Assembly (NCBI GenBank): GCA_045636085.1
Contig: JAZTWU010000122.1
Location: forward strand, 1 to 61,328
Source: Eubacteriales bacterium
GTDB taxonomy: Bacteria; Bacillota; Clostridia; Oscillospirales; CAG-272
DNA length: 61,328 nt
Direction of reading: 5' to 3'
The notes beneath the pieces were generated by a model that saw only the letters and a program-made list of their open reading frames with translations, made no database searches and was not told the DNA's origin. A program made the position numbers and the translations under genes. Within the stretch, counting starts at the first letter, position 1. Each line of letters begins with the position of its first letter. Shown here one piece after another: positions 2,375-21,640 of this stretch.

Positions 2375-2470
2375 AAATTCATCTCCTAAAGCATCTTTCG
2401 ATGCAAAAAAATCTTATAGAGTGATTGTATCATATTTTTTCAAAAAAAGCAAGACCTTTTTGAAAAATAT

Positions 2471-3403: not shown

Positions 3404-3433
3404 TCTCTCTCTCCGATCCGTATCGGTATTGGG

Positions 3434-3472
3434 CAAAAAAGAACGCCCGATGAGGAGCATTCCCCATCGGGC
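3434..3472 (-). terminator. intrinsic terminator after the last gene of the phage-like operon
   Basis: Minus strand reads GCCCGATG-12 nt loop-CATCGGGC followed by GTTCTTTTTTG. Lies between the stop at 3517 and the cysK start. Confidence 0.5.
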
Positions 3473-3516
3473 TCCTCTTTATGACAGAAATATTCTATCA
3501 CACGAGGCATTTAAAG

Positions 3517-4338
3517 TCAAGAGGCGGCGCTTTCCTTTTTCTCCTCGCCGTGCTCGCACAGAAATTGGGCAAGCAGGCGCGTTTTTGCGCGAAGGAAGGG
3601 GATCTCGGCCTCGGAAACGAAGAGATAGCCCTGCGTATAGCCGCGCAGACCGATGATCAGAAGCGCCGAGAGCTTGAGGATTCCCTCCAGCACGGCCGAG
3701 GTGGTGAGAGAATCCCGAACGCTGACGGCAACGCCGATGCCGAAGGCTGTGCACAGAAGTGAGGGCGCCAGCCTCGCAAAAAGGCGGCGGCGTCTTTGTC
3801 TTGCGGGTTGCCAGAGCGGCGTTCCCTCCGCATCCGCGCCCTTGCCGAGAAGCATTGCGGCGCGCACGGGCAGAGGGCGAAGCCTTCGGTAGCGCCGGAG
3901 CTGTGCGGGACGGAGGGCGGCCTCATCCCTTGCACCGTAGGTAAGCAAAAGCAGGGCGCGGCGGCGGGAAAGCTCCTCCGCCGTGTAAGCGCGGCAGAAA
4001 TCCTCCAGCGCACCGTAGTGGTGCGGCGTGACGGCGGCCACCGCCTCCTTCAGCTCACGCTGTGCCTCCGTGAAGGCAGATTCGGCGCGGCCTGCGCATT
4101 CTCCCTCCTCCGCCAGAGAGAGAAATATAACGGCGGTTGCCACGGCGTAAATGCCGAGCTTCAGCGTCATTGCCTCGGCGCTCAGCGAGAGAAGGGAAAG
4201 GTCGGTAAAGGTGGCCAGCGCCGCGATGAGAAGCGCAAGCACCGCAATCCAGAAGCCGATGTGCGCGAAAAGTCGCTCCTTTCCCTTGGAAAATGCGGCA
4301 AGGGAGCCTGCAAGCAGGCGTTCATTCTTGCTTTCCAT
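3517..4338 (-). CDS. membrane protein (about 4 TM helices), last gene of the phage-like operon
   Basis: ATG at 4336-4338 (the track starts one GTG codon earlier). Hydrophobic stretches include HIGFWIAVLALLIAALATF, LGIYAVATAVIFLSL, LLCTAFGIGVAVSV and LSALLIIGL. Overlaps the preceding gene by 17 nt. Confidence 0.55.
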   Translation of the reverse strand: MESKNERLLAGSLAAFSKGKERLFAHIGFWIAVLALLIAALATFTDLSLLSLSAEAMTLKLGIYAVATAVIFLSLAEEGECAGRAESAFTEAQRELKEAVAAVTPHHYGALEDFCRAYTAEELSRRRALLLLTYGARDEAALRPAQLRRYRRLRPLPVRAAMLLGKGADAEGTPLWQPARQRRRRLFARLAPSLLCTAFGIGVAVSVRDSLTTSAVLEGILKLSALLIIGLRGYTQGYLFVSEAEIPFLRAKTRLLAQFLCEHGEEKKESAAS

Positions 4339-4693
4339 CACGCATACCCCGTCTGTTTGCTGCGCGCAGGCAAAGCGCGCCGAGCAGGTTGCCGATCAGG
4401 CCGAAAAAGCAGATCATACTCATCTCGGGCGCAATGCTTTGCACGAGGCGGAAAAAGATCAGGCCGAAAAGCCAGAGGCTCCAGATCGCAGGCGAGCGCA
4501 GATAATCCCTCAGCGCGCGCAGAAAGGGGAGCGCGCAGAGCACGCAGAGCAGAAGCGTTCCGCCGGCAATCCTTGCGCCGCCTCCGCGCTCACTCCAGAG
4601 CGGAAAGCAGGAGAGCGTTGCCGCCAAGGGGGTGCCAACGGCGAAAAGATAGCCGAGAGCCTTTAAAAGGCGGCCGCGCTTATTCCGTTTCAT
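4322..4693 (-). CDS. small multi-pass membrane protein (holin-sized, function unverified)
   Basis: 123 aa with 3-4 hydrophobic segments and charged termini. Overlaps both neighbours, which suggests translational coupling. Confidence 0.5.
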   Translation of the reverse strand: MKRNKRGRLLKALGYLFAVGTPLAATLSCFPLWSERGGGARIAGGTLLLCVLCALPFLRALRDYLRSPAIWSLWLFGLIFFRLVQSIAPEMSMICFFGLIGNLLGALCLRAANRRGMRDGKQE

Positions 4694-5300
4694 TGCTTTC
4701 GTCCTCTCTGCCGCGGTGCAATGTAGCCTTCATTTCCTCCACGCGCCCGAAAACGCGATCCTTTTCAAACTGCGGCAGGGCGGAGGAAAGAAAAATGTCG
4801 CGGAGCATATCCACCTGCCCCTCCATCAGCAGATGCAGTTTTTCAATCTCGCCCTTTTGGTCGCCGAAGGCATCGAGCTTTGTCTCGATTTCTGCGAGAG
4901 CCTGTTCCGTTTTCTTTGCGAGATCGTTTGCAAAATGAATAGTGTTGTTTGCATTTTCATAGATTTTCAGTGCTTGCTCCGTCTGCTTGGTTGCGCTCTT
5001 TTCGCAATCCTTGGTGGCGGCGCTGATGGCGCCGAGTCCCTCGCGCAAAAGCGGAAGAAGTCCCTTTTTATAGCAAAGGCCGATAATGCAGGCCGAGAGC
5101 AGGGAGAGGGCGGAGAAGACCTCGGGAAGATGCGCGCCGAGGCGCTCGTAAAGGAGAAGAAAAAATCCCTCCTCCTCTGTCACCTGCACTTCGTCGGCGG
5201 CTTGCGTTGCCTCCGTGCTCGGCTCGGCCGCGTGGGTTACTGCGGCGAAGGGAACAAGGAGCGAAAGGCAAAGGCAAAGCGTGAGTAAAATTCTTTTCAT
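4680..5300 (-). CDS. signal-peptide/membrane-anchored coiled-coil protein
   Basis: MKRILLTLCLCLSLLVPFAAVTHAAEP signal-like N-terminus, an internal TM (ALSLLSACIIGLCY), then heptad-rich sequence. The ATG at 5298-5300 has AAAGGAA 6 nt upstream. Confidence 0.55.
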   Translation of the reverse strand: MKRILLTLCLCLSLLVPFAAVTHAAEPSTEATQAADEVQVTEEEGFFLLLYERLGAHLPEVFSALSLLSACIIGLCYKKGLLPLLREGLGAISAATKDCEKSATKQTEQALKIYENANNTIHFANDLAKKTEQALAEIETKLDAFGDQKGEIEKLHLLMEGQVDMLRDIFLSSALPQFEKDRVFGRVEEMKATLHRGREDESNETE

Positions 5301-5315
5301 GGTGATTCCTTTCAT

Positions 5316-5711
5316 TCAGAAAATACTGGTGTCTGTGAGGCGTGTCTCAAGGGCTTGGATGCGTCGCTCCAGCGCCTCGACGCGCGCCAAAGAACCCTTC
5401 AGCGCCCGCTCCAGAGCGATGCATTCCTCCTTCCCCGGCGGAAGAAGATGCATGCATCCGCCGCTGATGAGGAAGGGCGGCCCCTCAAAGCGCTTGCCCT
5501 CTGCGAAGAAAACGGGGGTGTGGATGCCCGTTTGAAGCCCGTCCGCAGGAACCTCCGCGCCCTCCGCCGTGAGCGGAAAGCGCCTTGCTCCGATCGTGAG
5601 ATCTCCGGGCACGGGTGTGGTGAGGCGAAAGCGCGCACGGTCACAGCCGAGTCTTTCTGCGCGGATGATCAGCGCTCTTTCTCCCTCAAGCTCAAAAATG
5701 AATTCCTTCAT
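5316..5711 (-). CDS. hypothetical phage-like protein with C-terminal coiled coil
   Basis: 131 aa. ATGA overlap with the upstream gene. Ends LARVEALERRIQALETRL. No family recognised. Confidence 0.5.
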   Translation of the reverse strand: MKEFIFELEGERALIIRAERLGCDRARFRLTTPVPGDLTIGARRFPLTAEGAEVPADGLQTGIHTPVFFAEGKRFEGPPFLISGGCMHLLPPGKEECIALERALKGSLARVEALERRIQALETRLTDTSIF

Positions 5712-5935
5712 CGGAGCATCTCCTCCCGATAACAGATGTAAATGAAGTCCTCGTCCTCCTCGTAGTAAATGGAGAAGGTGGTCGGCGCTTCGCCCTCGGT
5801 GCGCTCCTTGAGCGGCTTATAGCCTGCCGCGCGCAGCTGTTCCTCCGAAGGGTTGGTATAGATCCGCCCGTTCACGGTGAGGTATGGGCGGGTCAGGCAA
5901 TCGATGCGTGTGTCGCTGATTCTTTTTGCGTACAT
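5708..5935 (-). CDS. hypothetical small phage-like protein
   Basis: The ATG at 5933-5935 has AAGGAG 5 nt upstream; the track ORF starts 6 codons earlier. 75 aa. Confidence 0.5.
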   Translation of the reverse strand: MYAKRISDTRIDCLTRPYLTVNGRIYTNPSEEQLRAAGYKPLKERTEGEAPTTFSIYYEEDEDFIYICYREEMLR

Positions 5936-5945
5936 AGCGTCTCCT

Positions 5946-7115
5946 TTAAACATAAGTGAAATACATAATGAAGGGGGAGATCTTCGTCTGCAAATTGAGG
6001 TAATTGTCTCCCTTCACGGTTTTTGGACGAATAGGCTCGAAGCGCTCGATCACGGGCGTTTCGGTCAACCAGAGAAGCTCTGCACCGAGCGATTGGAAGA
6101 GTGTAAGGAAGGATTCGGGCGTTTTGTAGGTGCTCTTCGCCGTGAAATCGATCGCCCTTCCGTCCTCGGTGCGCATTGCCCAGAAGGCGTTGGAGAGGAA
6201 GGAGGATTGGTTTGTGGTCAGTGAAAAGCAGTTGAGTGCAATGGTTTTGTCCCAAAGATCCTCGGGCAGAGCGATGCGATAGGTCGGAAGAGAGGAGCCG
6301 ACATCCACGGCGACGGCCTCCTCTGCTTGGAAGGGGCGGGACATCACGACGCGCTCAACATAGCCCTGCAAGGGGTATGCAATATCGGCAGAGGTGCTCA
6401 TCGTGCGCAGAGGCGCGCTCAGCGAAAAGCTGTAAAACTCGCCCGCGTATGGCTCGAATTCCTCCTCCGTCGGTGTGCCGAAGAAAAAGCCGAAGCTATC
6501 AAGATCCAGCTCGCGGATCGCTCCGCCCGTGGAAACAACGGACATACCGTTGATGCGCTTGGAGCTTGAGCTGCTCGTCAGAAACTGCACCGTTTCGCCG
6601 CCCGTGAAGGTTCCGCTTTTCGTGATCGCCTGTGTGCCGCTGTCGTACTTTATGACGAGACCCGAATTCAGCGAGCTTCCGCTGTACGTGGGGGCACGCA
6701 TGCGAAACATCACCGTGTAAATGACGCCCGATCCGTCACGAAGAAAGCCGTCGGGAAAAAGGGCTACCGTTTTGGTGGAGGAAAAGCGCAAAACGCCTCC
6801 CTCCACCTCGGCGCTCACGGCGCTGTTTTGCGCGGCCACCCGAAGCATCGCCTCGGCCAGCATTTCGCCGCTGACATAATTTCTTTTATGAAAGTGGATC
6901 GGGAAATGATAGCGCCCGTCCTCCCCTGCATCGCCGAGGTAGCTCGTATAGCGGACGCCGCTGGAAAGTGAAGCGGCGCTGGAATACGCACGTATGCCAA
7001 GGCTTATGAGGCCGTTTGCACGGGAGAGGGTAACTCTGTGGCCGGAGCTCATTTGCATCGTCTGCATCGTCGGCGCAGAGGTTGCTCCGAAGAAGCGAAG
7101 CCTGTCAGCAATCAA
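5946..7115 (-). CDS. putative tail fibre / receptor-binding protein
   Basis: 389 aa. TTG start at 7113-7115 with GAGGGGGG 6 nt upstream. Ser/Thr/Gly-rich, beta-type sequence. Assignment rests on its position after the fibre N-terminal-domain gene. Confidence 0.45.
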   Translation of the reverse strand: MIADRLRFFGATSAPTMQTMQMSSGHRVTLSRANGLISLGIRAYSSAASLSSGVRYTSYLGDAGEDGRYHFPIHFHKRNYVSGEMLAEAMLRVAAQNSAVSAEVEGGVLRFSSTKTVALFPDGFLRDGSGVIYTVMFRMRAPTYSGSSLNSGLVIKYDSGTQAITKSGTFTGGETVQFLTSSSSSKRINGMSVVSTGGAIRELDLDSFGFFFGTPTEEEFEPYAGEFYSFSLSAPLRTMSTSADIAYPLQGYVERVVMSRPFQAEEAVAVDVGSSLPTYRIALPEDLWDKTIALNCFSLTTNQSSFLSNAFWAMRTEDGRAIDFTAKSTYKTPESFLTLFQSLGAELLWLTETPVIERFEPIRPKTVKGDNYLNLQTKISPFIMYFTYV

Positions 7116-7581
7116 GCGTAACCCCCCTCACTAGGCCCTGCATTCTTCCGTCGTGCCAGAAGAGAAGGGTATAATGCTTGCCCGCCGCAGGGATAAAGAG
7201 CCCCTCGGCCACGTCATCGCCGCTGAAGTGGATATGCGGCTCTTCGGGATAGGAAAGCTCGGTTGGCGTATCGATCGGGGAATCGAAGCTCAGCGAGGCG
7301 TAATAATCCTCACGAATAAAATCGGGGAAGGATACGGCGATCGCCTCTGCCTCGGAAAAGCGCATATCGTCGCCGTGGCGAAGCAGAGCCTGCGCGCCGT
7401 CACCCTCCTTGACCTCGCCCGTCAGAGAGGAAAGCTCGGAGAAGGGATGCGTGCCGTCGCCGATTTTGATCAACGTGCCGCCTCCGATGCAAAGGAGCGC
7501 CAGCTCTCCCTCTGCGGGAATGATATCTGCCTGCGCCCATTGCTCCCGATCGGCGCGCAGGTGTTGTATGACTTTAGACAT
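7105..7581 (-). CDS. tail fibre protein with HylP/Mtd-type N-terminal domain
   Basis: N-terminus RADREQWAQADIIPAEGELALL...IKIGDGTHPFSELSSLTG follows the pattern R-x-x-x-x-W-x-x-x-D-x-I-x-x-x-G-E...K-x-G-D-G-x-x-x-F-S-x-L seen in phage hyaluronidase/fibre N-termini. GGAGG RBS. Confidence 0.65.
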   Translation of the reverse strand: MSKVIQHLRADREQWAQADIIPAEGELALLCIGGGTLIKIGDGTHPFSELSSLTGEVKEGDGAQALLRHGDDMRFSEAEAIAVSFPDFIREDYYASLSFDSPIDTPTELSYPEEPHIHFSGDDVAEGLFIPAAGKHYTLLFWHDGRMQGLVRGVTLDC

Positions 7582-7591
7582 AAGACCTCCG

Positions 7592-8038
7592 TTATATGGA
7601 ATCGGTTCTTTCCGAGGGGGCGCCGCAGTCCACGTGGAAATTTCCCGTGCCCCGGAAGCTGTCGCCCATCAGAAGAACCAGCGTTTTAAGTGTGCCCTCC
7701 ATTTCGGTGAGCAGGCTGTAAAGAGAGCGCCCGCCGATATCAAGGTAGGTGGAAAGGGCACCGCTTTTCAGATCGTCAAAAAGATTTTTCAGCGTGTGAC
7801 CGCTTTCCAGCCCCGTGGGGATCTCGCTCGCAAGCGAACCCGCGCCCGTGCTCCCAATGTCCGAAAGAAGGGCGTTGAAGCGGCGGATGATCAGCAGAGG
7901 GAGGCGGTCAAAGGCCTCCTTGAGCTGGGTTGCGGTGTAGCCCCTTCCGCCAAAGGCGGAGGAGGCTGTGGGGCGGGAGGGAAGCGCCGCAATGCAAAGC
8001 GGCGCGTATTCGCTCTCTAAGATAGGTTGGGTATTCAT
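7592..8038 (-). CDS. hypothetical virion protein
   Basis: 148 aa, GGAG RBS 6 nt upstream of the ATG at 8036-8038. No family recognised. Confidence 0.5.
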   Translation of the reverse strand: MNTQPILESEYAPLCIAALPSRPTASSAFGGRGYTATQLKEAFDRLPLLIIRRFNALLSDIGSTGAGSLASEIPTGLESGHTLKNLFDDLKSGALSTYLDIGGRSLYSLLTEMEGTLKTLVLLMGDSFRGTGNFHVDCGAPSERTDSI

Positions 8039-8060
8039 AATCGTCTCCGTTTCTCAGAAA

Positions 8061-10775
8061 TTATCGGTTTTTGATTCTTCCCTGCACGGTGAAGCGGTAG
8101 CTCAGCGAATAGATGCCGAAGGGCTCGCGAAAGCCCTCGCTATACACAGCGATTTGCTTTTCGATCCAGTTTTTCTCCTTTTCACGGAAGCTGAGGGTGA
8201 AATAGGGGGAGTTGTCCAGCGTGGTCGCGGAGAAATCCAGCGTGTCAAAGGCAAAGCTTGCGCCGGGAAGAAAAACGCCCTCGCGGTAGCCCGCGCGATC
8301 CGTGCCGACCTCCAAAAGCATAGAGGAGGAGGTATAGGAGCGGCATTTGACGGAGAGCGAGCCCTTCACGGTGCTTTTCGTCAGGTGCGGAATGTCACAG
8401 CAATCGCGCTTGGTTGCCAGCGCATAGCGGGGCGCGTGACGGTCGAAGTCGTAAAAGCTTTCGTGAATGCGCCGTCCGTAGTGAAGCTTGTAATTCTCCT
8501 CGTCGAAGTCGTCGCTCTCCCTGAGCGCCTCGGGGGCTTCACCGCGCTTGTCATTGTTGAAAAGGCAGAGATCTCCGCTTCCCGTTCCGAAGAAGAGAAA
8601 CTGCTCCAAGGCAAGAATGCTTTTTGCGGGGGAGAAATATCCGCCCCGTCTTTGCTCCGTGGGATAAACGAGATAGCGCCGATAGTCCCGCGTGACATAG
8701 TAAACGAGATCCTCGCCGTCACGCACGCTGTAAACGGTTTCGTTTTCCACGACCTCGTCGCGATGCTCGGTGAGAACAAAAAATCCGCTTCTCTCCTCGC
8801 CGCTGAAGCGGTAAACCGTTTCGTCGTCGCGATAAGAGCCGATGCCGTTAAGGTAATACCATTCGTAGGAAAAGCTTCCCGTGGGATGCGAATAGGTCTG
8901 GTGTGCGTCTGCAAGGTAGATGTGCTCGCCTGCGCAAACCACGAGGTAGTTCTGCCATTTTGCCAGTCGGATGCGGCTCATATCCTCTGCAAGCAGACGG
9001 GTGTTGACCGTTTGAGAGCGGCAGGTAACGCTTCTTTGCAGGGAAAGATTCTTTTTGTCCAGCGCGCAGATTCCCTCCTCGCAAACGAAAACGGGATCGT
9101 CAAAGAAGGAGAGGGAGCCTGCGGTGGCCGCAATGCCCGAATGCACATAGCTGACGGGATAGATCTTCGGCAATAGCGGAGAATCGGTGGCCTGCGGCGT
9201 ATGGTAGTAGATACTGCCGCCGCCGTCGTCACCGCTTTTGAAGACCGCAAGCGAGTCCCCTGCCGCCAGCAGGGATTTCACGGGGAAGCCCGCAATGCCA
9301 TCGTTGAAGTAGTTGAGGCTTCCGAAGTAGGTCGGATTCATTCGTCCCGTGTTGTCACGCGCCGAATAGAAAACGGTGTTCGGATAGTCGGGGTTTCCCG
9401 AAAGGAAAACGCGCCCGTCAAAAACCTCGCAAACCGTGCATCCGAGGATCGCCATAAAGCCGCCCTTGTTCTTTCCTTGGTTTTCAAAAAGAAAGTCGTT
9501 GCCCGCTTCGCTCTGATAGCCGAGCTCGTCGAAAATCTCGCCGCTGATCACGGCCTCCTTGCCAACGGTCTCCGTATAGTCGGAGAGGGTGATGTCCAGC
9601 GCGCAAATGATGCCGTCCTTCTGCACGAAGGCGGCAGACCAAGGCGTGTCACCGATGCGAAAATCCGCAATACTCTCGGTCGGCTCGTGCAGAGGAAGGC
9701 GCAGGCGCCTTTCCTTGTATTGGGAGTGCTCGTGTACCGTGGCATTCGCGGGGAAAACGGCGCGCACCGCCTCGGGAAGATCCGCCGTCAAGCCGTCGAT
9801 GTGAATATTCGCAAGTGCGTTGCAGTCGCGCAGGGCATCCTCCGCCGCGCTTTGGAGAGTGGACGGCAGATAGAGTGCGCCGAGCGTGTAGCAATCGGCC
9901 AGAACCTCGGATGCAAGCTCCGTCAGCCCTGCGGGGAGAGCCGCGGTTTTCAGCGTGGTGCATTCCGCAAAGGCGCGCGCCCCGATGTCGCAAACGCCGC
10001 TCGGCAAAACGATGGCGCGGAGCGTTCGATCCTTTTCGAAGGCCGCAGGGGCGACGGAGACAACGGTGTAGTCTATGCCGCCGATGCTTGCCGTTTTCGG
10101 AACGAAGAGCTTTTCGTCCGTGCACCGCCCGCGCCCCGCGAGGCGGCAGGTGAGATCCGCCTCGCTTTCGATCTCGAATTCAAGATCGGGGGAGGTATAG
10201 GCAAAGCGCATCGGATTTTCAAGGCTGTAAATTTCCTTGAAGCCAACGGAGAGAAGATTTCTCTGCTCCATTGGCTCTCCGTTATAAAATGTGGTTGGAA
10301 TGTAAACCCCGCTTTGCTTATATTCGTTTATCGTGACCGTTTTTCCGCTTTCATCCACGATGTGAATGTTCATTCCGTCCAGAATATAAACGGAGCTTCC
10401 GTGGCTGAAGGCCGCGCTTTGCGCAGGGTAAAGCGTGCCGATCGGACTCATAATATCGGGAAGAGAATCCCGGCTTTCGAGCGAAAAACGGTACAGATAA
10501 TGTCCTGCGTGAACGAGGATAAAGCGCCCGCGCGGCGTGGTCTGCGAAAAAATGCCGTAGATCGGATGCTCAAAGGAGCAGAGCTTTCGGAAGCCCGGAA
10601 TGCTTTCCGTGATCCCTGCGCCCTCGCCGTCATAATCGCGATACATATTTTCAAGATAAGCAAAGCGATCTGCCGCGATATTGCTTCCGTCACCCGTGAA
10701 ATCAACGCCGCGCATATCGTGATAGTGGCGGTTATATTGGCTTTTGCTCTGAATCAGATTGTTGGTGTTTTTCAT
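8061..10775 (-). CDS. large tail hub/nozzle-like protein with embedded BspA-type leucine-rich repeats
   Basis: The ATG at 10773-10775 follows AAGGAGG; the track ORF begins at a TTG 6 codons earlier. Beta-propeller-like repeats by eye. The LRR block is VVSVAPAAFEKDRTLRAIVLPSGVCDIGARAFAECTTLKTAALPAGLTELASEVLADCYTLGALYLPSTLQSAAEDALRDC. Confidence 0.6.
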   Translation of the reverse strand: MKNTNNLIQSKSQYNRHYHDMRGVDFTGDGSNIAADRFAYLENMYRDYDGEGAGITESIPGFRKLCSFEHPIYGIFSQTTPRGRFILVHAGHYLYRFSLESRDSLPDIMSPIGTLYPAQSAAFSHGSSVYILDGMNIHIVDESGKTVTINEYKQSGVYIPTTFYNGEPMEQRNLLSVGFKEIYSLENPMRFAYTSPDLEFEIESEADLTCRLAGRGRCTDEKLFVPKTASIGGIDYTVVSVAPAAFEKDRTLRAIVLPSGVCDIGARAFAECTTLKTAALPAGLTELASEVLADCYTLGALYLPSTLQSAAEDALRDCNALANIHIDGLTADLPEAVRAVFPANATVHEHSQYKERRLRLPLHEPTESIADFRIGDTPWSAAFVQKDGIICALDITLSDYTETVGKEAVISGEIFDELGYQSEAGNDFLFENQGKNKGGFMAILGCTVCEVFDGRVFLSGNPDYPNTVFYSARDNTGRMNPTYFGSLNYFNDGIAGFPVKSLLAAGDSLAVFKSGDDGGGSIYYHTPQATDSPLLPKIYPVSYVHSGIAATAGSLSFFDDPVFVCEEGICALDKKNLSLQRSVTCRSQTVNTRLLAEDMSRIRLAKWQNYLVVCAGEHIYLADAHQTYSHPTGSFSYEWYYLNGIGSYRDDETVYRFSGEERSGFFVLTEHRDEVVENETVYSVRDGEDLVYYVTRDYRRYLVYPTEQRRGGYFSPAKSILALEQFLFFGTGSGDLCLFNNDKRGEAPEALRESDDFDEENYKLHYGRRIHESFYDFDRHAPRYALATKRDCCDIPHLTKSTVKGSLSVKCRSYTSSSMLLEVGTDRAGYREGVFLPGASFAFDTLDFSATTLDNSPYFTLSFREKEKNWIEKQIAVYSEGFREPFGIYSLSYRFTVQGRIKNR

Positions 10776-10783
10776 AGGCCTCC

Positions 10784-11626
10784 TTATGCCCAATGATGCG
10801 TGTCAACGATTCCGTCCTCCGCATAGGAGGGGCGGCTGAGACGGATGTCACGCACGCCCTCCATATACATTTGCAGGTAAAACTGCGCCTTCGCCGCATC
10901 GTCGTCCAGCCAGAGATAGGAGGCGGTCAGCAGAGGGAGAAGGTGCGAGAAGGTCGGAGCCATATCGATCGGCGCATCGGGAGAATTTGGATTGATGGCG
11001 CGGGGCAGGCGGCGGTAGGTGAGATGAATCTCGCCCTCGTATTCGCGGGGAATGAAGAAGGTTTCATCGCGAAAATATGCGCCGGGGATCGTGGCGCCCC
11101 CCGCATCGCGGGGGAGCGCCGTAAAGCCGTAAAAGTCCGCCGTCAGCTCTCGCATCGGGTAGGTCTGATAAGGGCGCAGGACGGGAATGTCTTTCTCGGA
11201 GGTGCCGTAGGTGAAGGGAAAGCAGGCGATATCCTTCAGCTGATAGGAAAACTGCCCGCTGAGGATCAACTCGCCCTCCTTATCGGGCAAAAAGCGGCAG
11301 AATTCCATATAAGGCGATTCAAAGAAAAAGGGGGTAACTCTGTGGCGCTCCTTGAGCGTGAAATGGCCTGCCCCCGAAAACTTCATACTGAAGGAGGTTC
11401 CGTGCAGAGGGATGGTGACATCCTCTCCCGGCGTATAAATCACCTCCTCGATCAGAGACGAGGGCTGAATCGCGCGCTGCAGGAGCGTGAGCGTTTCATA
11501 GGAGGGGGAAAGGGCGCTGAGGCTTCGCAGAGCGCGGTTGGCGCAATGAAGCAGGGCGGATTTGTTTTCAATCTCGCTCTCAAAGCCGAGCGCCGCCACC
11601 TCCGAGGTCAATTCGGTATAGGTCAT
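10784..11626 (-). CDS. hypothetical protein in the head-tail adaptor position
   Basis: 280 aa, lying directly after the capsid gene. No motif recognised; the role is inferred from position only. Confidence 0.45.
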   Translation of the reverse strand: MTYTELTSEVAALGFESEIENKSALLHCANRALRSLSALSPSYETLTLLQRAIQPSSLIEEVIYTPGEDVTIPLHGTSFSMKFSGAGHFTLKERHRVTPFFFESPYMEFCRFLPDKEGELILSGQFSYQLKDIACFPFTYGTSEKDIPVLRPYQTYPMRELTADFYGFTALPRDAGGATIPGAYFRDETFFIPREYEGEIHLTYRRLPRAINPNSPDAPIDMAPTFSHLLPLLTASYLWLDDDAAKAQFYLQMYMEGVRDIRLSRPSYAEDGIVDTHHWA

Positions 11627-11633
11627 CGCGGCA

Positions 11634-12686
11634 TCAGAGCGCGGTTGCGTTCGCTACGGCGCTTGCCGAATCCACGGCGAGAAGAATGTGCTTGTAGCTT
11701 CCGAAGCCAACGCCGAAGCGGCAGCGTCCCGCCCAAAGGTAGTTGCCCGTGTGATGGTCAACCCAGTTGGAAACCGAGAGGGGAACGCGGTTGAAGAACA
11801 TATTGCCCGAGAGGTTCTTGTTTGCCTCGGAGGACATGATCATCACGCGGTCGTCCGTGGTCTGCCAGCCGGGAAGAATCACGATGTTCCAGTTGCCGAA
11901 CTGCAGGTTGATATCGTTGTAGCCGTTGCCGAGAGCACCCTCGGAGCCGCAAACCTTCTTTGCAATCATTTCGGCCGCAGGGCGGTTGCCGGGAAGGATC
12001 AGGGTGTCGGCCGTGTAGCCGAGGCTCTCGCCGTTTTCGTCCTTCATATTGCGAAGCTTCACGGAAAGCTCGGAGAGCGCCTGCTCAAAGGCCGCCGTCG
12101 AGAGCTTTCGGTCCGCGCCGGAGGCGAAAATATCGCCCCAGAAGAAATTGGACTGCGTGCCCGTATCCGTGCCGTACTTGTGCGCGGCGGAGAAGAGGGG
12201 AAGGTTGTCCGGTGCGGTCAGATCCAGCGTTGCACCGGAGAAGGCGCCGCTTGCCGCAGTTCCGCTTGCCAGCGCGTATTCGCAGATCTTGTGCATCGTC
12301 TTGTAGTAAGCACGGGTGAAGTTTTCCGCGCGGCGCTTGGCATCGGCGGCAACGCCGTAGCCCGCATCCTCCATCATTTCGGCGGTGATGACGAATTCCT
12401 TCATAAACTGAATGTGCTCGATAAACTTGCGGTAGGTCTCCGTCACGGTATCGCGCTGTGCGCCGTCTCCCTCGGGGGTAGCGGCAAAGACGTCGAATTC
12501 GTTCTGGCCAACGATGGTTTCGCCGAAGCGAGCGCTGCTCTCAACGTTGAAGAGCCAATCGCGGATGCCTCCCTTCTTGGTCAGAATATCGCTCTCGTGC
12601 TCGATCACCATCTTGATGGGAGTTTCGAGCTTTCCAATGGCGGCGTTGTTGGTGCCGACGGATTTGGAGTAAATAATAGTAGACAT
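11634..12686 (-). CDS. major capsid protein (presumed HK97 fold)
   Basis: 350 aa, following the scaffold-like gene and preceding the tail genes. Size, composition and position are typical of a capsid protein. No HMM search was run. Confidence 0.65.
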   Translation of the reverse strand: MSTIIYSKSVGTNNAAIGKLETPIKMVIEHESDILTKKGGIRDWLFNVESSARFGETIVGQNEFDVFAATPEGDGAQRDTVTETYRKFIEHIQFMKEFVITAEMMEDAGYGVAADAKRRAENFTRAYYKTMHKICEYALASGTAASGAFSGATLDLTAPDNLPLFSAAHKYGTDTGTQSNFFWGDIFASGADRKLSTAAFEQALSELSVKLRNMKDENGESLGYTADTLILPGNRPAAEMIAKKVCGSEGALGNGYNDINLQFGNWNIVILPGWQTTDDRVMIMSSEANKNLSGNMFFNRVPLSVSNWVDHHTGNYLWAGRCRFGVGFGSYKHILLAVDSASAVANATAL

Positions 12687-12707
12687 TTTGAAGCAAAAAT
12701 CCTTTCT

Positions 12708-13202
12708 TTAATTGGTTACCTTTTTGAATAAACGGTGGATCTGCGCATCGTCGAGATCCGAGAATAAGCGTCTGGCCTCCGCCATTTCCTCCGCAGAGAG
12801 CGTGGTGGAGCCAAGCGCTCCTATGCGCGGAACGGCGCTTTGCAGATGGGCGCGGTTGTCGCTTCTTTTGCGAGGCGCACCGCCCGTGGCAAGATAAGCC
12901 TCTGCGGGACTGAGGCCGAGCTCTCGCAGCTCGGCATAGCGCACGGGGTTGGGAAGTGCGCCGAGCGATGCAAGCCCCGCGAGAGCGGGAAACTGCGCCT
13001 TCAGCGCCGCAAGATCCTCTTTTGCGATTTTTTCGTAATCCTCCGCGGCGAGTGCGGCTTCCTCCGCCTCTGTTTCGAGGATTTCCTCGGAAGGCGCCGC
13101 GGTTTCCTCGGAGAAGGTCTCCGCTTCGCCTTCAATCTTCAGTTCTGCGGCGGCGAGGGGCTCGTCCGCTCTTTCGCCGTTTTCAAGAAGCGTCTCGTCC
13201 AT
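12708..13202 (-). CDS. scaffolding protein (acidic, helical)
   Basis: 164 aa, Glu/Ala-rich (EAEEAALAAEDYEKIAKEDLAALKAQF), immediately upstream of the capsid gene. Confidence 0.55.
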   Translation of the reverse strand: MDETLLENGERADEPLAAAELKIEGEAETFSEETAAPSEEILETEAEEAALAAEDYEKIAKEDLAALKAQFPALAGLASLGALPNPVRYAELRELGLSPAEAYLATGGAPRKRSDNRAHLQSAVPRIGALGSTTLSAEEMAEARRLFSDLDDAQIHRLFKKVTN

Positions 13203-13205
13203 AGA

Positions 13206-13343
13206 TCAGCCCTTCTTTCTCTTGGAGCGCAGATCGTCTCCCACGGTCTTGGTTACGCGGGGCTCGCCTGCGGTGATATTGTTCGGGGCACAGATCCTTC
13301 CGCCCTTGTTGGTTGCATAGGTGGATTGTCTTTCCTTTTTCAT
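13206..13343 (-). CDS. small basic protein (45 aa), absent from the ORF track
   Basis: My translation is MKKERQSTYATNKGGRICAPNNITAGEPRVTKTVGDDLRSKRKKG. AAAGGAA lies 5 nt upstream of the ATG at 13341-13343. It fills the gap between two operon genes. Confidence 0.35.
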   Translation of the reverse strand: MKKERQSTYATNKGGRICAPNNITAGEPRVTKTVGDDLRSKRKKG

Positions 13344-13367
13344 AGCAGTTCCTTTCATTCGTAAAAA

Positions 13368-14018
13368 TTAATTCGTTTTGTCAAAGATTTGAGGCACGGT
13401 GGTTCCTCCGATTACCTGCGCGTATTTGCCGAAGCGCTCGACCTCCTCCTCCGAGAAGCCAAGGGAGCGCGCATAGCCCTCCACTCGAACTCTCGAAAGC
13501 CTTTGCTCAAGGATCATTTCAAGCAGGCGCGAGGCGGCTCTCTGCTTTGCCGCGACAACGCCGAGCTCGGCGGCAACCCTTGCGTTTTCCTCCGTCAGGC
13601 CTCCTGCGATCGCCTTGTTAAAGGCGCTTTCAAGATCAAAGCTTCCGTCACTTTCAATGCTGTCGATCATTTGCATGCGAAGGCGATCCTGCCTGTCCTC
13701 GTGCGAGGTCAGGTATTTTGCATAGCCCGCAAGGTTTTTCTCCTTCACGGCGGCATTGTCCGATGCGTATTTCTGCTTTGCGGCGGAGAAGCTGCGATCG
13801 GCCTCGTTGGCAAGAAAACGCGCGTAGCCGCTGCTCTGCAAGCCCCTTTCGGAGAGCCATTCCGCATTTTTGCCGTAGGTCGGTGCGCTTTTTGCGCGTG
13901 CGGTTGCCGCCGCATCGGGCGTCACGGTGTTCGTATTTGCCGTTCCGTGCTTGCGGATCCAGGCGGCAAAGCTGCTCGGCTCGTTTTCCTTCTTCTTTTT
14001 CGTGAGCAAATCCGTCAT
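13368..14018 (-). CDS. hypothetical head-associated protein
   Basis: 216 aa. Its ATG overlaps the portal stop (ATGA at 14015-14018). No family recognised. Confidence 0.5.
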   Translation of the reverse strand: MTDLLTKKKKENEPSSFAAWIRKHGTANTNTVTPDAAATARAKSAPTYGKNAEWLSERGLQSSGYARFLANEADRSFSAAKQKYASDNAAVKEKNLAGYAKYLTSHEDRQDRLRMQMIDSIESDGSFDLESAFNKAIAGGLTEENARVAAELGVVAAKQRAASRLLEMILEQRLSRVRVEGYARSLGFSEEEVERFGKYAQVIGGTTVPQIFDKTN

Positions 14019-15784
14019 CCGATCACCTCCTCACCGATATCTCGTTGCATTGCTTCCTCTCGCACGGCACCACGGAAATATTCCACATTCTCCCTTGCGT
14101 ACGGGTAATGTGCGCGCTCCTGACTTTGCCAGTAGCGCAGAAGGGTGGCACTCCTCGAAGGATCGCCCAGCGCGCCACTACGCAGATTTTCCAGATTCTT
14201 TTGCCAAAGAACCTCTCTTTGCGCCTCTGCGCCTCCGTTAAGATCCACGGAAAAGAGAAAATCGTCGTCGTAATAAAGCGTGCCGCTTCCCTCGTCGCAG
14301 AGAATGAAGTCGTAGCGGTTGAAGGTCGCGTTGTGCATACGGCCGAAGGCATCGGTATAAGAGATCTGCCTCGGCTCGTCCGCAAAGGAAAGATGATGCT
14401 CAAAGATCAGTCGGTCGATCTCGGCATAGGCCGTGTATTTCATCTTGCGCTTGGATTCGAGGCGCCCCGAGGCCTGCGAGATCTGCAGGCTTCTTGCATA
14501 GCCGGATTCGTTTCGGCTGTTGTCAATGCCGACGAGCGCATCGGAAATACCGAGAATGCGCTTGGCCTGATCGTAAAGGCGGGTGGCCTCCGCGATGTCC
14601 TGTGAAATGTCGGGGGTGGTATCCACCTTGCCGTATTGCGCCGCGCTTTCGCCGGGCTTCATCTTGATCATCTGGCCGAAAACCGAGTTGTTGAGGGTGA
14701 TGGTGGCATCCTCGGGAACCACGGGGGTAACGCCGGCGCGCAGAAGCTTTTGCAGAATGCGGGATTCGATCTTGTTGATCGCCTGCTGCTGCGGGCGGAT
14801 GATCTCGCAGTCCGAGGCGCCGAAAAGGCTTCCCTCCAGCGAGGTGTTTCTTCGGATCACGATGGGGAAGCGCTTGGGCGTATAATAGGGAACGCTGATG
14901 CCTCCGTCCTCCTGCTCCGAGGGGGAAAAGATTTTCGTTCCGTCCGAAAGCTCTGTGACTTGCAGATGCTCCTCGCTCTGGTTTTGCAGAGTGAACTGCG
15001 GATGCTCGCAAAGGCAGTTTTGCTCCTCGCTGTGGCAAGCGGAGCAGAATCTCCGCTTTCTGGCGTAGTAATCGGGAATGTCTGTCAGCGTAAGCTCGCC
15101 CGAAAATGCGTATTCACCGATTCTGCCGTCCGTGTCGCGATAAAAGCAAAGGATCACGGTTGCGCCCTCCTCCGCCTCTCCCTCGTAGGTCTCGCTGTCC
15201 CATTCTCTTTCGGCCAGAGAAAGCGCCTCCGCCGAAACACCCCATTTGCGCATAAGCTCGGCCTTCGTCGTGTCAAAGCGCAAAAAGCAGTAGTCCATAT
15301 CCTCAATGGTACGCGCGCCCGGCTGAGGGATGAAGTCCTTCGGGGAAAGGCAATGCACGGAAACGCCGCCGATGCGGTTGCCAAGCCCCTCGTGGCTATC
15401 CCATTCCACGAACCAGACGCTTCCGCCGTATATGTAGCTGTATCGCTCGTCGAGGTCGTTCATTTGCTCGTAGGGGAGCTTTTCGCGCACCGCGGAAAGC
15501 AGGCGCTCCACGCTCTGCGCAAGGCGAAGCTTCTTTTCGCTGTAAGCCGTCGGATCCACCTTCGGGGGCGGGATGTGGGAGGAGACCTGACTCTCGATCA
15601 TCTCGTAGGTGATGTTGCGCACGGTCAGCGCCTTCTCGGTGGAGCCGTCGATCTCGGTCGTTCCGCGATATTGCCGCATATGGCGGTCAAAGAGCGTGCG
15701 CCCCTCTGCGGCCGCATTCCTGCTCTTTTGGTAAAGCGAGGAAAAATAAGCGAGCCGCTCGGATTTTGTTTTGTTTTGTGTCAT
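14015..15784 (-). CDS. portal protein
   Basis: Starts MTQNKTKSERLAYFSSLYQK at the ATG 15782-15784, overlapping the terL stop. 589 aa, directly after the large terminase. The first ~200 codons of track ORF 14015..16387 are an out-of-frame overlap with terL. Confidence 0.8.
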   Translation of the reverse strand: MTQNKTKSERLAYFSSLYQKSRNAAAEGRTLFDRHMRQYRGTTEIDGSTEKALTVRNITYEMIESQVSSHIPPPKVDPTAYSEKKLRLAQSVERLLSAVREKLPYEQMNDLDERYSYIYGGSVWFVEWDSHEGLGNRIGGVSVHCLSPKDFIPQPGARTIEDMDYCFLRFDTTKAELMRKWGVSAEALSLAEREWDSETYEGEAEEGATVILCFYRDTDGRIGEYAFSGELTLTDIPDYYARKRRFCSACHSEEQNCLCEHPQFTLQNQSEEHLQVTELSDGTKIFSPSEQEDGGISVPYYTPKRFPIVIRRNTSLEGSLFGASDCEIIRPQQQAINKIESRILQKLLRAGVTPVVPEDATITLNNSVFGQMIKMKPGESAAQYGKVDTTPDISQDIAEATRLYDQAKRILGISDALVGIDNSRNESGYARSLQISQASGRLESKRKMKYTAYAEIDRLIFEHHLSFADEPRQISYTDAFGRMHNATFNRYDFILCDEGSGTLYYDDDFLFSVDLNGGAEAQREVLWQKNLENLRSGALGDPSRSATLLRYWQSQERAHYPYARENVEYFRGAVREEAMQRDIGEEVIG

Positions 15785-17145
15785 AAGGGTTCTCCGTATT
15801 TGCGTTTTAGATATTGCCTTCCTTCCTCGTCGGCGGCGAAATAGTCCTCCCACATATCGGCGCTCCAGGGCCGTCCGTGCCGCTCCGTGGGGACGGGGGC
15901 GGGGCGGGTGAAATAAACGGCGAAGCCGCGCAGAGCATCGGGGGCATGCGTAATATCGTGCGGCTCGGTGGCGCAGTCGCTGGGGCGGTGCTTGTCTATT
16001 TGCAGGGCGGGAAGGCAACGGATCAGCTCGGTGCAGTGCGAAAAAATGGAGAGCATCGGGGCGCCGTCCTTTTCCCTCAGAAGCTCCTTCAGGCAGAGCC
16101 AGCCGGCCTCGCGGTTGTTGGAGCTCTTCGTGAAGGGAATGCCATAGGAGGCAAAAAGGGTGGCCTTGCTTTTTCCGCTTTCCTGACTGCGGCTGAAAAG
16201 ATCGGGGGGCGCGAGCGTTGCATAGATCTGCTCGTGCGGCGGCGTGTGCGATAGAATTTCGGCGGCCGCCTCGCCGATGGGGAGATCCGAGATGCAAAGC
16301 TCTCGGTAAACGTAGGCTCGTCCCTCCGGGCTCACGGCGATCCATAGGCAGGCGAGACGGTCCAGCCCATAATCCACCGTGCGCCATTTTCTCCAGCCGC
16401 TCGGAATTTCGAAGGGTGCACAGGTATGCTTTGCCGCTGAAAATTCGGAAAAATACTGCCCGTCGAAAATATTCCAGTCGCCATAGAGGAGCGCCTTTTG
16501 CTCCTTTTCGGGAAGCGAGAGAAGCCGCTTTTTATAGTCGGGATCTCCTTCGCTGAGAAAGCGGTTGTCCGAAAGAAGAGAGGGGAGAAAGATCCGCGAG
16601 AGCCCGTCCGATCCCGAGAAGGGGGTCTCGGGAGGCGAGGGGTCAACGAAGCGCGCCTTCACCCATCCGTGCCCGATCCCGCCGGGATTGGTGGAGGACT
16701 TGATCTGCTTCGGAAAGGCGTTTGCCCCGCGAACGCGTGAGATGAGATACAGATACTGTGCCTCGGTGAAATGCGTCAGCTCGTCGAAGCGAACGATATC
16801 GTATTCCGCGCTCTGGTATTGGTAAACGTCGTTTTCTGCCGCGCAGTAGCCAAAGTCGATGCAGGAGCCGTTTTTGAATCGGCCGAGGTGGGCGGTCGAA
16901 TTGAAACGGTAGATCTCCCTTGGGAAAAGCGCCAGTGAGGTGCGGATCAGGGATTTTTCCAGCTCTGCAAAGCTTCTTCGGAGAATCAGCTGCTTGGAGC
17001 CGGGATAGAGGAGCGCCGTTGTCAGCGCATCCACAAGCTGGCCATAGGACTTGCCGCCGCCCGCCGCGCCGCCGAATAAAACCTCGGTTGCGGTGGCATC
17101 CATAAAGGCCTTCTGCTTTTTTGTGAGCGTGAGATGCAGCTTCAA
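15781..17145 (-). CDS. terminase large subunit
   Basis: Walker A GGAAGGGKS near the N-terminus and a C-terminal nuclease-type region. TTG start at 17143-17145 with GGAGG 7 nt upstream, overlapping the terS stop. Confidence 0.85.
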   Translation of the reverse strand: MKLHLTLTKKQKAFMDATATEVLFGGAAGGGKSYGQLVDALTTALLYPGSKQLILRRSFAELEKSLIRTSLALFPREIYRFNSTAHLGRFKNGSCIDFGYCAAENDVYQYQSAEYDIVRFDELTHFTEAQYLYLISRVRGANAFPKQIKSSTNPGGIGHGWVKARFVDPSPPETPFSGSDGLSRIFLPSLLSDNRFLSEGDPDYKKRLLSLPEKEQKALLYGDWNIFDGQYFSEFSAAKHTCAPFEIPSGWRKWRTVDYGLDRLACLWIAVSPEGRAYVYRELCISDLPIGEAAAEILSHTPPHEQIYATLAPPDLFSRSQESGKSKATLFASYGIPFTKSSNNREAGWLCLKELLREKDGAPMLSIFSHCTELIRCLPALQIDKHRPSDCATEPHDITHAPDALRGFAVYFTRPAPVPTERHGRPWSADMWEDYFAADEEGRQYLKRKYGEPL

Positions 17146-17477
17146 GAGAGCACCTCCAGCGTCACCGAAAGAGAGGAATCCTCCCCGTCCTGTCCGTTTT
17201 CGCTCTCGTCATCCAGAAGGTACTTGACGAAGGAGGCGTCAAACCGCTTTGTCAGTGCTCGGTCAATCAGGTAATCCCTGCGGATTTCACCGCATTCGCG
17301 GATGGCGCGCTCAAAGTCCTTGTGCCCTTTGAAGGCGAGAAGCTGTTCGGTTGTGTATCCCTGCGATCGGGCGAATTTGTGAAGGCTGGGGGCGCTCTTC
17401 TCATCGTCGTAGCAGGCGAAAAAGCTATATAGCCGTCTCGGAAGATCGCGCTCGTAGGCGCGCTTTTTCGTTTTCAA
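17142..17477 (-). CDS. terminase small subunit (start uncertain: TTG 17477 with strong RBS, or GTG 17525)
   Basis: Basic N-terminus, an HTH-like core (SLHKFARSQGYTTEQLLAF) and an acidic tail. AAAGGAGAA lies 7 nt upstream of the TTG at 17475-17477. Confidence 0.65.
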   Translation of the reverse strand: MKTKKRAYERDLPRRLYSFFACYDDEKSAPSLHKFARSQGYTTEQLLAFKGHKDFERAIRECGEIRRDYLIDRALTKRFDASFVKYLLDDESENGQDGEDSSLSVTLEVLS

Positions 17478-17527
17478 GGAGGTTCTCCTTTCTTTCGTTT
17501 TTCGAGAGCTTTGCCTCTCGTGCACTT

Positions 17528-17586
17528 AGTATACCAAAGAATTTTTTTTCCGTAAGTATAGTGCATTTCCAAAAATCACCTATCAA
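17528..17586 (-). promoter_or_regulatory. candidate promoters of the phage-like operon
   Basis: On the minus strand, TTGATA (17581-17586) is followed by CACTAT at 17 nt or TATACT (17555-17560) at 20 nt. A second, extended -10 TGgTATACT lies at 17528-17536. Confidence 0.4.
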
Positions 17587-17595
17587 GTGACTTTT
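17571..17595. promoter_or_regulatory. palindromic operator copy A: AAAAATCAC-CTATCAA-GTGACTTTT
   Basis: Both 9-nt half-sites and the 7-nt spacing are identical to the site at 54552-54576. The flanking tcc and the downstream tttgtg are also shared. Confidence 0.6.
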
Positions 17596-17613
17596 TTATT
17601 TGTGAAAGAGCAA

Positions 17614-17646
17614 CAAAAAAAGCCCACCGAGAAGGCCTCGGTGGGC
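17614..17646 (-). terminator. intrinsic terminator of the ABC-F gene
   Basis: Perfect 10-bp stem GCCCACCGAG/CTCGGTGGGC with a 5-nt loop, followed on the minus strand by TTTTTTT. Confidence 0.75.
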
Positions 17647-17675
17647 AAAATAGGGGTAAAACGGATAAATTTTTT

Positions 17676-19592: not shown

Positions 19593-19654
19593 AATACCTT
19601 TCCATTCTGCCGCCGAAGACGGCCGAGATAAAAGTAAGCGTTTTTTCTTTTCCT

Positions 19655-19683: not shown

Positions 19684-19720
19684 TCGCCGAAGCAAAGAAA
19701 ACGGAAGAAACTTGAATAAT

Positions 19721-21635: not shown

Positions 21636-21640
21636 TAGAA

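Follow-up and report, generated by a model that had tools for sequence, protein, structure and literature searches.

A podovirus-derived operon of gut Clostridia, apparently domesticated by its hosts, as a candidate gene transfer agent

The 61,328-nucleotide contig JAZTWU010000122.1 of an Eubacteriales bacterium (assembly GCA_045636085.1; the whole stretch, positions 1 to 61,328, is referred to here as the window) carries a compact cluster of phage-like structural genes between two housekeeping genes. The cluster consists of 17 co-directional open reading frames (ORFs) on the minus strand at positions 3517-17477, and an ORF check recovered every one of them exactly where an earlier reading of the letters alone (the sequence-only reading) had placed it. 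Adjacent genes either overlap by 4-17 nt or are separated by gaps of at most 24 nt. Two intrinsic terminators on the minus strand bracket the block. One belongs to the upstream ABC-F gene and marks the upstream boundary (17622-17646; an 11-bp stem with 8 GC pairs, then a T-run), and the other closes the operon (3445-3472; a 12-bp stem with 8 GC pairs, then a T-run). The closing terminator is the top-scoring site within positions 2300-20000, and the two together are the best of the region. The segment 3517-17477 is a single, tightly packed 17-gene operon between two strong terminators. The sequence-only reading had proposed this layout, and it holds. Annotation of the neighbouring genes confirms that the block lies between a cysK-type gene and an ABC-F gene.

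The operon begins with the packaging genes (all genes of the block are on the minus strand). The small terminase subunit TerS (17142-17477; 111 aa, TTG start) matches phrog_3064 at 4e-5, and five of its orthologues match PF16677 GP3_package, the P22 gp3 type. The large subunit TerL (15781-17145; 454 aa) has the Walker A motif GGAAGGGKS and matches phrog_979 (1e-43) and Terminase_6N (1e-6). It is followed by a portal of the podovirus type (14015-15784; 589 aa), the start of which we corrected to MTQNKTK inside a longer ORF (14015-16387). This protein matches phrog_156 at 6e-29 and SU10_portal at 29.4 bits, the latter just under threshold. When an AlphaFold2 (AF2) model of the portal, with a predicted local distance difference test (pLDDT) score of 70, was compared with known structures by Foldseek, the top 50 matches were all portal or portal-vertex entries, mostly from podoviruses (Pan3, N4, SU10, T7 and P22). 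Within an insertion, the portal carries a cluster of four cysteines (C247, C250, C257 and C259; CxxC...CxC, residues 247-259). Because three of the four are invariant even in phage relatives at 32-44% identity, this cluster suggests a zinc-binding element typical of the portal family.

Three genes lie between portal and capsid. The first encodes a 216-aa protein rich in Lys, Ala and Glu (13368-14018), which has a tblastn match in about 50 of the 84 loci that we compared (see below) and a ratio of nonsynonymous to synonymous substitution rates (dN/dS) of 0.24; it is possibly a head assembly or internal protein. The second product is a basic protein of 45 aa (13206-13343; dN/dS 0.12-0.19), for which a 45-aa gene is called at the same position in relatives. 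The third, of 164 aa (12708-13202), has an acidic N-terminus and a helical, basic C-terminus and is kept in nearly all loci; its position and composition make it a putative scaffold. Family searches gave no match for either the 216-aa or the 164-aa protein. The major capsid protein (11634-12686; 350 aa, dN/dS 0.06) is HK97-type and belongs to the Mu-gpT / Phage_capsid_4 group. The window protein itself matches Mu-gpT/phrog_371 weakly, and the assignment comes from its orthologues, which match Mu-like_gpT in 15 of 24 cases and Phage_capsid_4 in 4 of 24. Orthologues also identify the next protein (10784-11626; 280 aa) as an SU10-type head-to-tail adaptor: 13 of 22 match PF24175 SU10_adaptor, with a best E value of 2.8e-7, and the window protein stays below threshold in family searches. 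Profile-based, sequence-only searches of the PDB with the portal, the capsid protein, the adaptor and a 389-aa protein described below gave nothing useful, so fold comparison was needed.

Fold comparison identifies the 904-aa product of the following gene (8061-10775) as a tail nozzle of the T7/P22/SU10 type. Its AF2 model (pLDDT 84.8) matched the nozzles of cyanophage A4 (1e-17), T7 (gp12; 6e-15), SU10 (1e-12) and P22 (gp10, 8eap_D; 3e-10). The protein has an inserted BspA-type leucine-rich-repeat domain (approximately aa 215-340; LRR_5 at 8.5e-12) and a beta-propeller, and these were the only parts that scored in a sequence-only PDB search. Residues 443-651 are 28% identical to the product of the gene after the adaptor in one phage relative (locus L103). 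Next comes a conserved tail-distal protein of 148 aa (7592-8038; dN/dS 0.12), present in most loci at 32-73% identity and without a family match. The three genes that follow form a variable module, located between the nozzle and a 131-aa gene, that is found in about one third of the loci; the rest of the gene set is constant. The first product of the module (7105-7581; 158 aa) is fibre-like and has a HylP-type N-terminus, with weak matches to phrog_6049 (0.002) and, over residues 9-59, to the hyaluronidase of PDB entry 6x3m (0.002). The second (5946-7115; 389 aa) has no family or PDB match and is a candidate receptor-binding protein. It is among the fastest-evolving products, with 51-73% amino acid identity to its closest relatives, yet its dN/dS is 0.20. 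The third is a protein of 75-81 aa (5708-5953; dN/dS 0.24-0.28), called as a 75-77-aa gene in relatives. The 131-aa protein itself (5316-5711; dN/dS about 0.3) has a C-terminal coiled coil and a counterpart of 130-131 aa at the same position in distant loci.

The last three genes encode membrane proteins, as judged by hydropathy. Membrane protein 1 (4680-5315; 211 aa) has a signal-peptide-like N-terminus, one transmembrane segment and a coiled-coil C-terminal half; its identity across the clade is 24-53% and its dN/dS 0.22-0.33. Membrane protein 2 (4322-4693; 123 aa), conserved across the clade, has three to four transmembrane segments and charged termini. It is holin-like in size and topology, and its only family match is a sub-threshold one to DUF2232. 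Membrane protein 3 (3517-4338; 273 aa), also conserved across the clade (dN/dS 0.16-0.21), has two plus two transmembrane segments around an Arg-rich loop.

The assignments of terS, terL, portal and capsid made by the sequence-only reading are thus backed by family matches, and for the portal also by fold. Its HylP-N-type fibre is consistent with the weak N-terminal matches, and its three terminal membrane proteins are borne out by hydropathy. The functions that it had reported as missing are missing by family search as well: among the 17 ORFs, Pfam, PHROG and NCBIfam gave no integrase, repressor, replication protein, tape measure, tube, sheath or lysin. The window flanks contain no replication, integration/excision or lysogeny-control genes, and no tRNA gene was found within the 61-kb window. 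The sequence-only reading had seen no flanking direct repeat, and the longest one common to both junctions is indeed only a 12-mer, taken here as chance. An adjoining integrase and att site or a replication module, which that reading had regarded as speaking against domestication, was absent from all 12 annotated contexts that we examined in other genomes, as was a lysin. What distinguishes an inducible prophage (integrase, repressor, replication and lysis genes, a substantial junction repeat) is therefore not present here. The block does have what is expected of a podovirus morphogenesis module, namely a portal, an adaptor and a nozzle, with no match to a tape measure, tube or sheath protein. 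The podovirus-type folds of both the portal and the nozzle show the architecture to be short-tailed.

Upstream of terS lies a conserved promoter (17528-17571, minus strand), composed of TGGAA (17571-17567), seven bases, ATACTTAC (17559-17552), 18 bases and the extended -10 element TGgTATACT, with the -10 hexamer at 17533-17528. When one mismatch in ATACTTAC is allowed and a -10-like hexamer is required after N18, 63 of 79 loci have ATACTTAC-N18-TAnAAT ahead of terS, always at the same spacing. In most of these 63, reading of the sequences also showed TGGAA seven bases upstream of ATACTTAC. Many of the -10 elements are extended by TGn, and a consensus -35 element is absent; to our knowledge, the element at the -35 position resembles neither TTGACA nor any other sigma-factor consensus. 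Within the 61-kb window there is a single copy of the motif, where 0.32 would be expected by chance. A metagenome scan with the exact pattern gave five matches, of which three are upstream of terS homologues and a fourth precedes a similar leader on a contig that ends before any gene. The geometry of the promoter stays rigid even between genomes with protein identities of only about 60% (loci L001-L084). By-eye comparison with the consensus sites of sporulation sigma factors, LexA, Spo0A and cre showed misfits of spacing or sequence, and these candidates were rejected; the -10 element is of the extended sigma-A type.

The transcript is predicted to start with a structured leader. In the window this is a hairpin, CGAGAG-gcaaag-CTCTCG (17503-17520, minus strand), followed by an A-rich spacer and the ribosome binding site GGAG (17488-17485), with a folding energy of -9.3 kcal/mol (z = -3.05). 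For 54 distinct leaders the mean z is -2.5, and z is below -1.5 in 78%. Leaders are often closed by a GCCGAGG/CCUCGGC helix whose start lies within a few bases of that predicted for the transcript and whose end directly precedes the ribosome binding site. Several lineages have a common inner hairpin with a UCCGGAAC or UCAUGAAC loop. Rfam gave no match in the window or in eight loci, leader included. Near the cluster in four loci, a gene for a winged-helix protein of the HTH_36 family (PF13730) is present together with a second copy of the operon promoter (L020, 1987-1601, minus strand; L027, 4474-3872, minus; L051, 1098-463, minus; L091, 1377-1775, plus). A single-protein metagenome scan for this putative regulator found nothing, and the alignment of the four sequences is too divergent for scanning. 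As an activator, the HTH_36 protein would play a role comparable to that of the late-gene activators that Firmicutes phages encode upstream of terS, or to that of GafA in RcGTA, a gene transfer agent (GTA) of Alphaproteobacteria.

Are these genes maintained, or are they in decay? A cryptic prophage remnant without current function has to be considered, given that structural-only remnants are common in bacterial genomes and that the GC content of the block is slightly above the local average (57.5%, vs. 52.4% for the 43 kb to the right and 56.4% for the left flank). At third codon positions the GC content of the block is 0.70, at the upper end of the host range, vs. approximately 0.61 for host ORFs. 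Against decay, the core ORFs are intact in essentially all loci (full length in 82 of 82 for the portal, 71 of 71 for the nozzle, 78 of 79 for terL and 73 of 74 for the capsid gene), so that the disrupted orthologues which the sequence-only reading had thought would count against it are almost entirely lacking. The dN/dS check that it had proposed gave values well below 1, between 0.06 and 0.33, for all 17 genes, the small ones included. Relative to the closest relative (L119), dN/dS is 0.06 for terL, 0.06 for the capsid gene, 0.13 for the portal gene and at most 0.31 for the others, including the 45-aa gene. Synonymous divergence (dS) from this relative is similar for cluster genes (0.38-1.07) and flanking host genes (0.39-0.62), and more distant comparisons agree. 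Both terminase genes are among the most constrained (dN/dS 0.06-0.14). Moreover, the promoter and leader are conserved, and the 17-gene content is identical in relatives at a synonymous divergence of 0.4-1.2. The intactness of the ORFs together with dN/dS effectively refutes the idea of a remnant, and we regard it as highly improbable.

The cluster is also very widespread. A scan with one genome per species found it in at least 197 species-representative genomes, essentially all of them bins of uncultured Clostridia/Eubacteriales from the gut of ruminants, horses and humans. Protein clusters homologous to the portal number more than 2,200, with identities of 53-87%, and many of them come from contigs 100-480 kb long. 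A search seeded with the divergent portal of L079 led to no cultured or named host. By tblastn, 84 loci share the same gene set, with identities to the window of 56-94% for the capsid protein and 56-97% for TerL, and retain the three membrane proteins. The chromosomal surroundings consist of housekeeping genes and are recurrent. A synteny check suggested by the sequence-only reading showed that the two closest relatives keep the order ABC-F / 17 genes / cysK, continuing with SecG, deaminase, glycosyltransferase, RimM and TrmD. More distant members have ABC-F / cluster / DinG-like helicase, and others pantothenate kinase-MutS2(-isochorismatase) / cluster / DinG-like helicase or giant proteins. 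Two arrangements therefore recur, one with ABC-F upstream and cysK or the DinG-like helicase downstream, and one with MutS2(-isochorismatase) upstream and the DinG-like helicase or giant proteins downstream. These downstream flanks were taken from nozzle-anchored loci; those from the genome scan ended at the cluster edge. One locus (L079) reads spoIIAA-spoIIAB-sigF-groEL / cluster, and in L079 and L080 too the cluster lies among housekeeping-type genes.

Three features of these contexts deserve mention. A DinG-like (DEAD_2) helicase gene is located 3' of the cluster in L001, L110, L117 and L118, that is, in both synteny groups and with differing upstream neighbours, which may reflect ancestral linkage or a functional association. 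In L079 (2815-6447), a low-GC member of the clade, the cluster directly follows spoIIAA-spoIIAB-sigF and groEL, which suggests that spore formers are among the hosts. The third concerns L080 (CAVDSZ010000002.1), a 229-kb contig labelled Akkermansia muciniphila that carries a Clostridia-type cluster and is probably mis-binned or mislabelled.

For 40 genomes with ABC-F adjacent to the cluster, we asked how pairwise distances of cluster proteins relate to those of the ABC-F protein. The correlations are r = 0.75 for TerL, 0.77 for the portal and 0.71 for the nozzle (Mantel p = 0.001), and TerL evolves more slowly than ABC-F. Together, these comparisons indicate that the cluster is vertically inherited, with every gene under purifying selection. 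As a side observation, the capsid protein is more conserved than the product of the adjacent ABC-F gene (94% vs. 89-94% identity), and its identities to the window protein seem to be split into two groups, at approximately 80% and approximately 60-75%.

The relatives of the cluster outside this clade are of a different nature. A profile search of 1.84 billion representative proteins recovered the whole clade as one 50%-identity cluster at 997 bits, with the next matches at 665 bits or below. The three outgroups that we examined are true phages or mobile elements, and all have replication genes. L103 encodes Phage_rep_org_N, DnaB, an integrase-like protein, a holin and an M15 lysin. In L105, replication is represented by a protein of the rolling-circle type, and a polyvalent protein of 3,561 aa includes an ART-PolyVal domain (14932-21911). 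L107 has a primase, a helicase, RecU, an amidase and, next to its tail genes, an RVT_1 reverse transcriptase (19208-21384), probably of the diversity-generating retroelement type. L103 and L107 share the order portal-scaffold-capsid-adaptor-nozzle with the window. Identities to the window proteins in L103/L104, L105 and L107 are 32-42% for the portal (32-34% in L103 and L107), 28% for the capsid protein and 26-28% for the nozzle; for TerL they are 30-48% in L105 and L107. The three membrane proteins are absent from L103 and L107, the two phage relatives examined for them. Since neither has such multi-transmembrane proteins 3' of the nozzle, a role of the trio as P22-like ejection proteins is not favoured.

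A further possibility is that the block is part of a multi-locus autonomous phage, or a capsid-forming satellite of the phage-inducible chromosomal island (PICI) type, and that its other modules are located elsewhere in the genome or come from a helper phage. Only 61 kb of the genome are seen, lysis genes and a regulator are not in the window, and capsid-forming satellites carry terS, terL, portal and capsid genes, according to work cited in 10.64898/2026.07.08.737213. The cluster, however, has its own adaptor, nozzle and fibres, so that no helper tail would be needed, and the annotated contexts contain no integrase, primase or att site. Its stable position and co-divergence with the host over at least 197 species are unlike those of mobile satellites. 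Among 50,697 phage records there is neither a complete phage counterpart nor a near DNA match, and IMG/VR holds only fragments of up to 16 kb with the cluster itself. That the block is such a phage part or satellite is, in our view, quite improbable.

These data lead us to view the block as a viriform, a particle operon that derives from a podovirus, was domesticated by its host and is passed on vertically. It most likely specifies a GTA-like particle that packages DNA, and we hold this interpretation with reasonable confidence. Domestication, which the sequence-only reading had favoured over an inducible prophage, can be regarded as established to a high standard for sequence data: synteny, dN/dS, occurrence in at least 197 species, intact ORFs and the folds of portal and nozzle all point the same way. 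A single promoter-to-terminator operon is predicted to encode all that a DNA-filled, short-tailed particle needs, and transfer of host DNA is the leading hypothesis for its function. The following mechanism can be envisaged. A sigma-A promoter with an extended -10 and no consensus -35 would carry a fixed operator, TGGAA-N7-ATACTTAC, at which a dedicated HTH_36 winged-helix activator would switch the operon on. With the activator gene under the same promoter, positive feedback could confine expression to a subpopulation. The mRNA would begin with a stabilising 5' stem-loop. The terminase would then fill capsids by a headful mechanism, mostly with chromosomal DNA because the element cannot amplify its own. 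The leucine-rich-repeat nozzle, in some lineages together with the fibre module, would bind recipient cells, and the membrane trio might act in release, either through a holin-like step that triggers host autolysins or through passage across the envelope.

Domestication for another purpose would leave the same traces. The particle could have been selected as a PBSX-like killer (a phibacin), for kin discrimination or defence, or for DNA release and biofilm formation, with packaging kept for head assembly or stability. The evidence for domestication is identical for all of these and does not separate the functions. The nozzle has an adhesin-type leucine-rich-repeat domain, and the membrane trio, specific to the clade and absent from the two phage relatives, hints at a function acquired after domestication. 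Furthermore, PBSX particles contain host DNA and yet function as a bacteriocin. On the other hand, the constraint on terS and terL, among the strongest of all genes in the cluster, speaks for selection on DNA packaging itself, and family searches of the block found no toxin or enzymatic tail domain. Published data on virus-like particles of gut Clostridia also fit GTA-like carriage of host DNA (PMC12946183). Overall, we consider selection for such another function unlikely, though well worth keeping in mind.

Several observations weigh against a GTA-like particle operon. Neither the operon nor the rest of the window yielded a lysis enzyme, which makes the release route proposed above a guess, and family searches with the three membrane proteins gave no match. 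The HTH_36 protein is a candidate for an autoregulated activator, its binding to the promoter being only inferred; the 61-kb window has no homologue, and the gene lies beside the cluster in just four loci. Capsid distances track ABC-F poorly (r = 0.31, Spearman -0.05). Because of this poor correlation, some exchange between lineages is conceivable; exchange of capsid alleles or the existence of two capsid variants are both possible. The hosts are all uncultured genome bins, and contamination of bins is possible for single loci such as L080. Finally, the element is known here from its genes alone.

Why should this cluster be of interest? Nearly all well-characterised GTAs come from Alphaproteobacteria. 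Virus-like particles of gut Firmicutes contain abundant host DNA, and GTA-like packaging of such DNA has been described for gut Ruminococcaceae, Oscillospiraceae and Christensenellaceae, but most of the loci behind it have yet to be identified (PMC12946183); 14-kb 'core' clusters have been proposed as GTA candidates in mouse gut Clostridia (10.64898/2026.07.08.737213). The cluster described here, which occurs in at least 197 species and amounts to more than 2,000 protein clusters, offers a specific and very widespread candidate for such a locus. What makes it interesting is this breadth, together with the conserved control region and the prospect of testing it as a source of the unexplained GTA-like signals of gut viromes. 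With a recognisable promoter signature and a candidate regulator at hand, existing long-read virome data can be re-examined directly for it. If active, the particle would be a major route of gene flow among uncultured members of the ruminant, horse and human gut. A more ambitious scenario is possible but, taken as a whole, somewhat doubtful. It would have the cluster as an ancient, single-operon GTA family, derived from a podovirus independently of FpGTA, the podovirus-like GTA of Faecalibacterium prausnitzii (Borodovich et al., Nat Commun 2026; 2024 preprint; PMC12946183). This family would have become fixed in a clade of uncultured gut Clostridia of family or order rank, with at least 197 species, and would be the unidentified source of part of the gut-virome GTA-like signal, with the leucine-rich repeats of the nozzle as receptor binder, the membrane trio in place of holin and endolysin, and an autoregulated winged-helix activator acting on a -35-less promoter.

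The remainder of the window adds ordinary chromosomal genes. To the left of the block are genes for a glycosyltransferase, a TadA-type deaminase, SecG and a PALP/cysK-type protein, and to the right those for the ABC-F ATPase, an amino-acid ABC transporter on the plus strand and an RluA-type pseudouridine synthase. The transporter comprises a binding protein (20015-20860), a permease (20931-21635) and an ATPase (21632-22495). Three long minus-strand ORFs in the same region (19841-22540) were rejected as genes; with dN/dS of at least 1 and low dS they are shadow ORFs. At the right contig end (59320-61328), the GC content falls to approximately 0.40-0.42, vs. 0.52-0.58 elsewhere, and the ORF located there (59320-61200) was possibly acquired horizontally.

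Comparison with known systems helps to place the cluster. Like PBSX of Bacillus, it is a phage-derived particle locus in a Firmicutes chromosome that is unable to propagate itself. PBSX has a long contractile tail and, within its locus, the repressor Xre, a sigma-like activator and a lysis cassette; family searches found no PBSX-type repressor, activator or lysis cassette in the window block. A capsid-forming satellite (cf-PICI) differs from the block, which has tail genes and neither an integrase nor a replication gene. With P22 the cluster shares the order terS, terL, portal, scaffold, capsid, adaptor, nozzle, and with the modules of P22, SU10 and T7 more generally the PF16677 terS, the SU10_portal and SU10_adaptor matches and the nozzle fold. 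Unlike these phages, it has no replication, lysogeny or lysis modules, and it adds a BspA-type leucine-rich-repeat insert in the nozzle as well as the membrane trio. RcGTA offers a parallel of another kind, as a head-to-tail operon of approximately 14-15 kb with vertical inheritance, purifying selection, slightly raised GC content and no replication or integration genes; the RcGTA regulator and lysis genes are encoded elsewhere in the genome. RcGTA is, however, of the long-tailed siphovirus type, with a tape measure and a tail tube, and its sequences are unrelated to those of the window cluster. The regulator GafA and host-DNA packaging have been demonstrated for RcGTA, whereas we infer both for the cluster.

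The closest parallel in architecture is FpGTA, which has a 10-ORF operon I and a separate operon II with a fibre, a receptor-binding protein, a holin and an endolysin, and forms 40-nm capsids with approximately 9 kb of DNA (PMC12946183). Both systems are chromosomal operons of gut Clostridia with the order terS-terL-portal-...-capsid-...-nozzle and without replication or integration genes. Both also have a P22 gp10-like nozzle (annotated from PDB 8eap in FpGTA; the window nozzle matches 8eap_D at 3e-10), and FpGTA is near-ubiquitous in its host genus, as the window cluster is widespread in its clade. The differences are considerable. The FpGTA capsid is annotated as a member of the N4-gp56 family, whereas none of 24 orthologues of the window-cluster capsid matches N4-gp56 at E <= 1. 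FpGTA has a Prp-type cysteine protease (RCH50850.1) between portal and capsid, and the 216-, 45- and 164-aa proteins found there in the window gave no Prp match. In the window, fibre-like genes lie inside the main operon, the nozzle has leucine-rich repeats, the operon ends with the membrane trio and no lysin was found; among the ORFs scanned in the window, nothing resembling a second operon with fibre, holin and endolysin was recognised. FpGTA also has experimental support for its particles, whereas the window element is known here through its genes. The most abundant outgroup, considered as a link between the two systems, turned out to be an ordinary phage or prophage. Because the two FpGTA markers, the N4-gp56 capsid and Prp, both fail, the cluster is set apart by the published description of FpGTA and is probably a distinct family that was domesticated independently; a distant common ancestry is possible. 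The sequence-only reading had expected a short-tailed architecture to stand out among such elements, a view that is outdated now that FpGTA is known to be podovirus-like (PMC12946183). The short-tailed architecture is real but no longer unprecedented, and the cluster would provide a second case of short-tailed phage domestication, apparently independent of FpGTA, that could help to ask which features of domestication recur.

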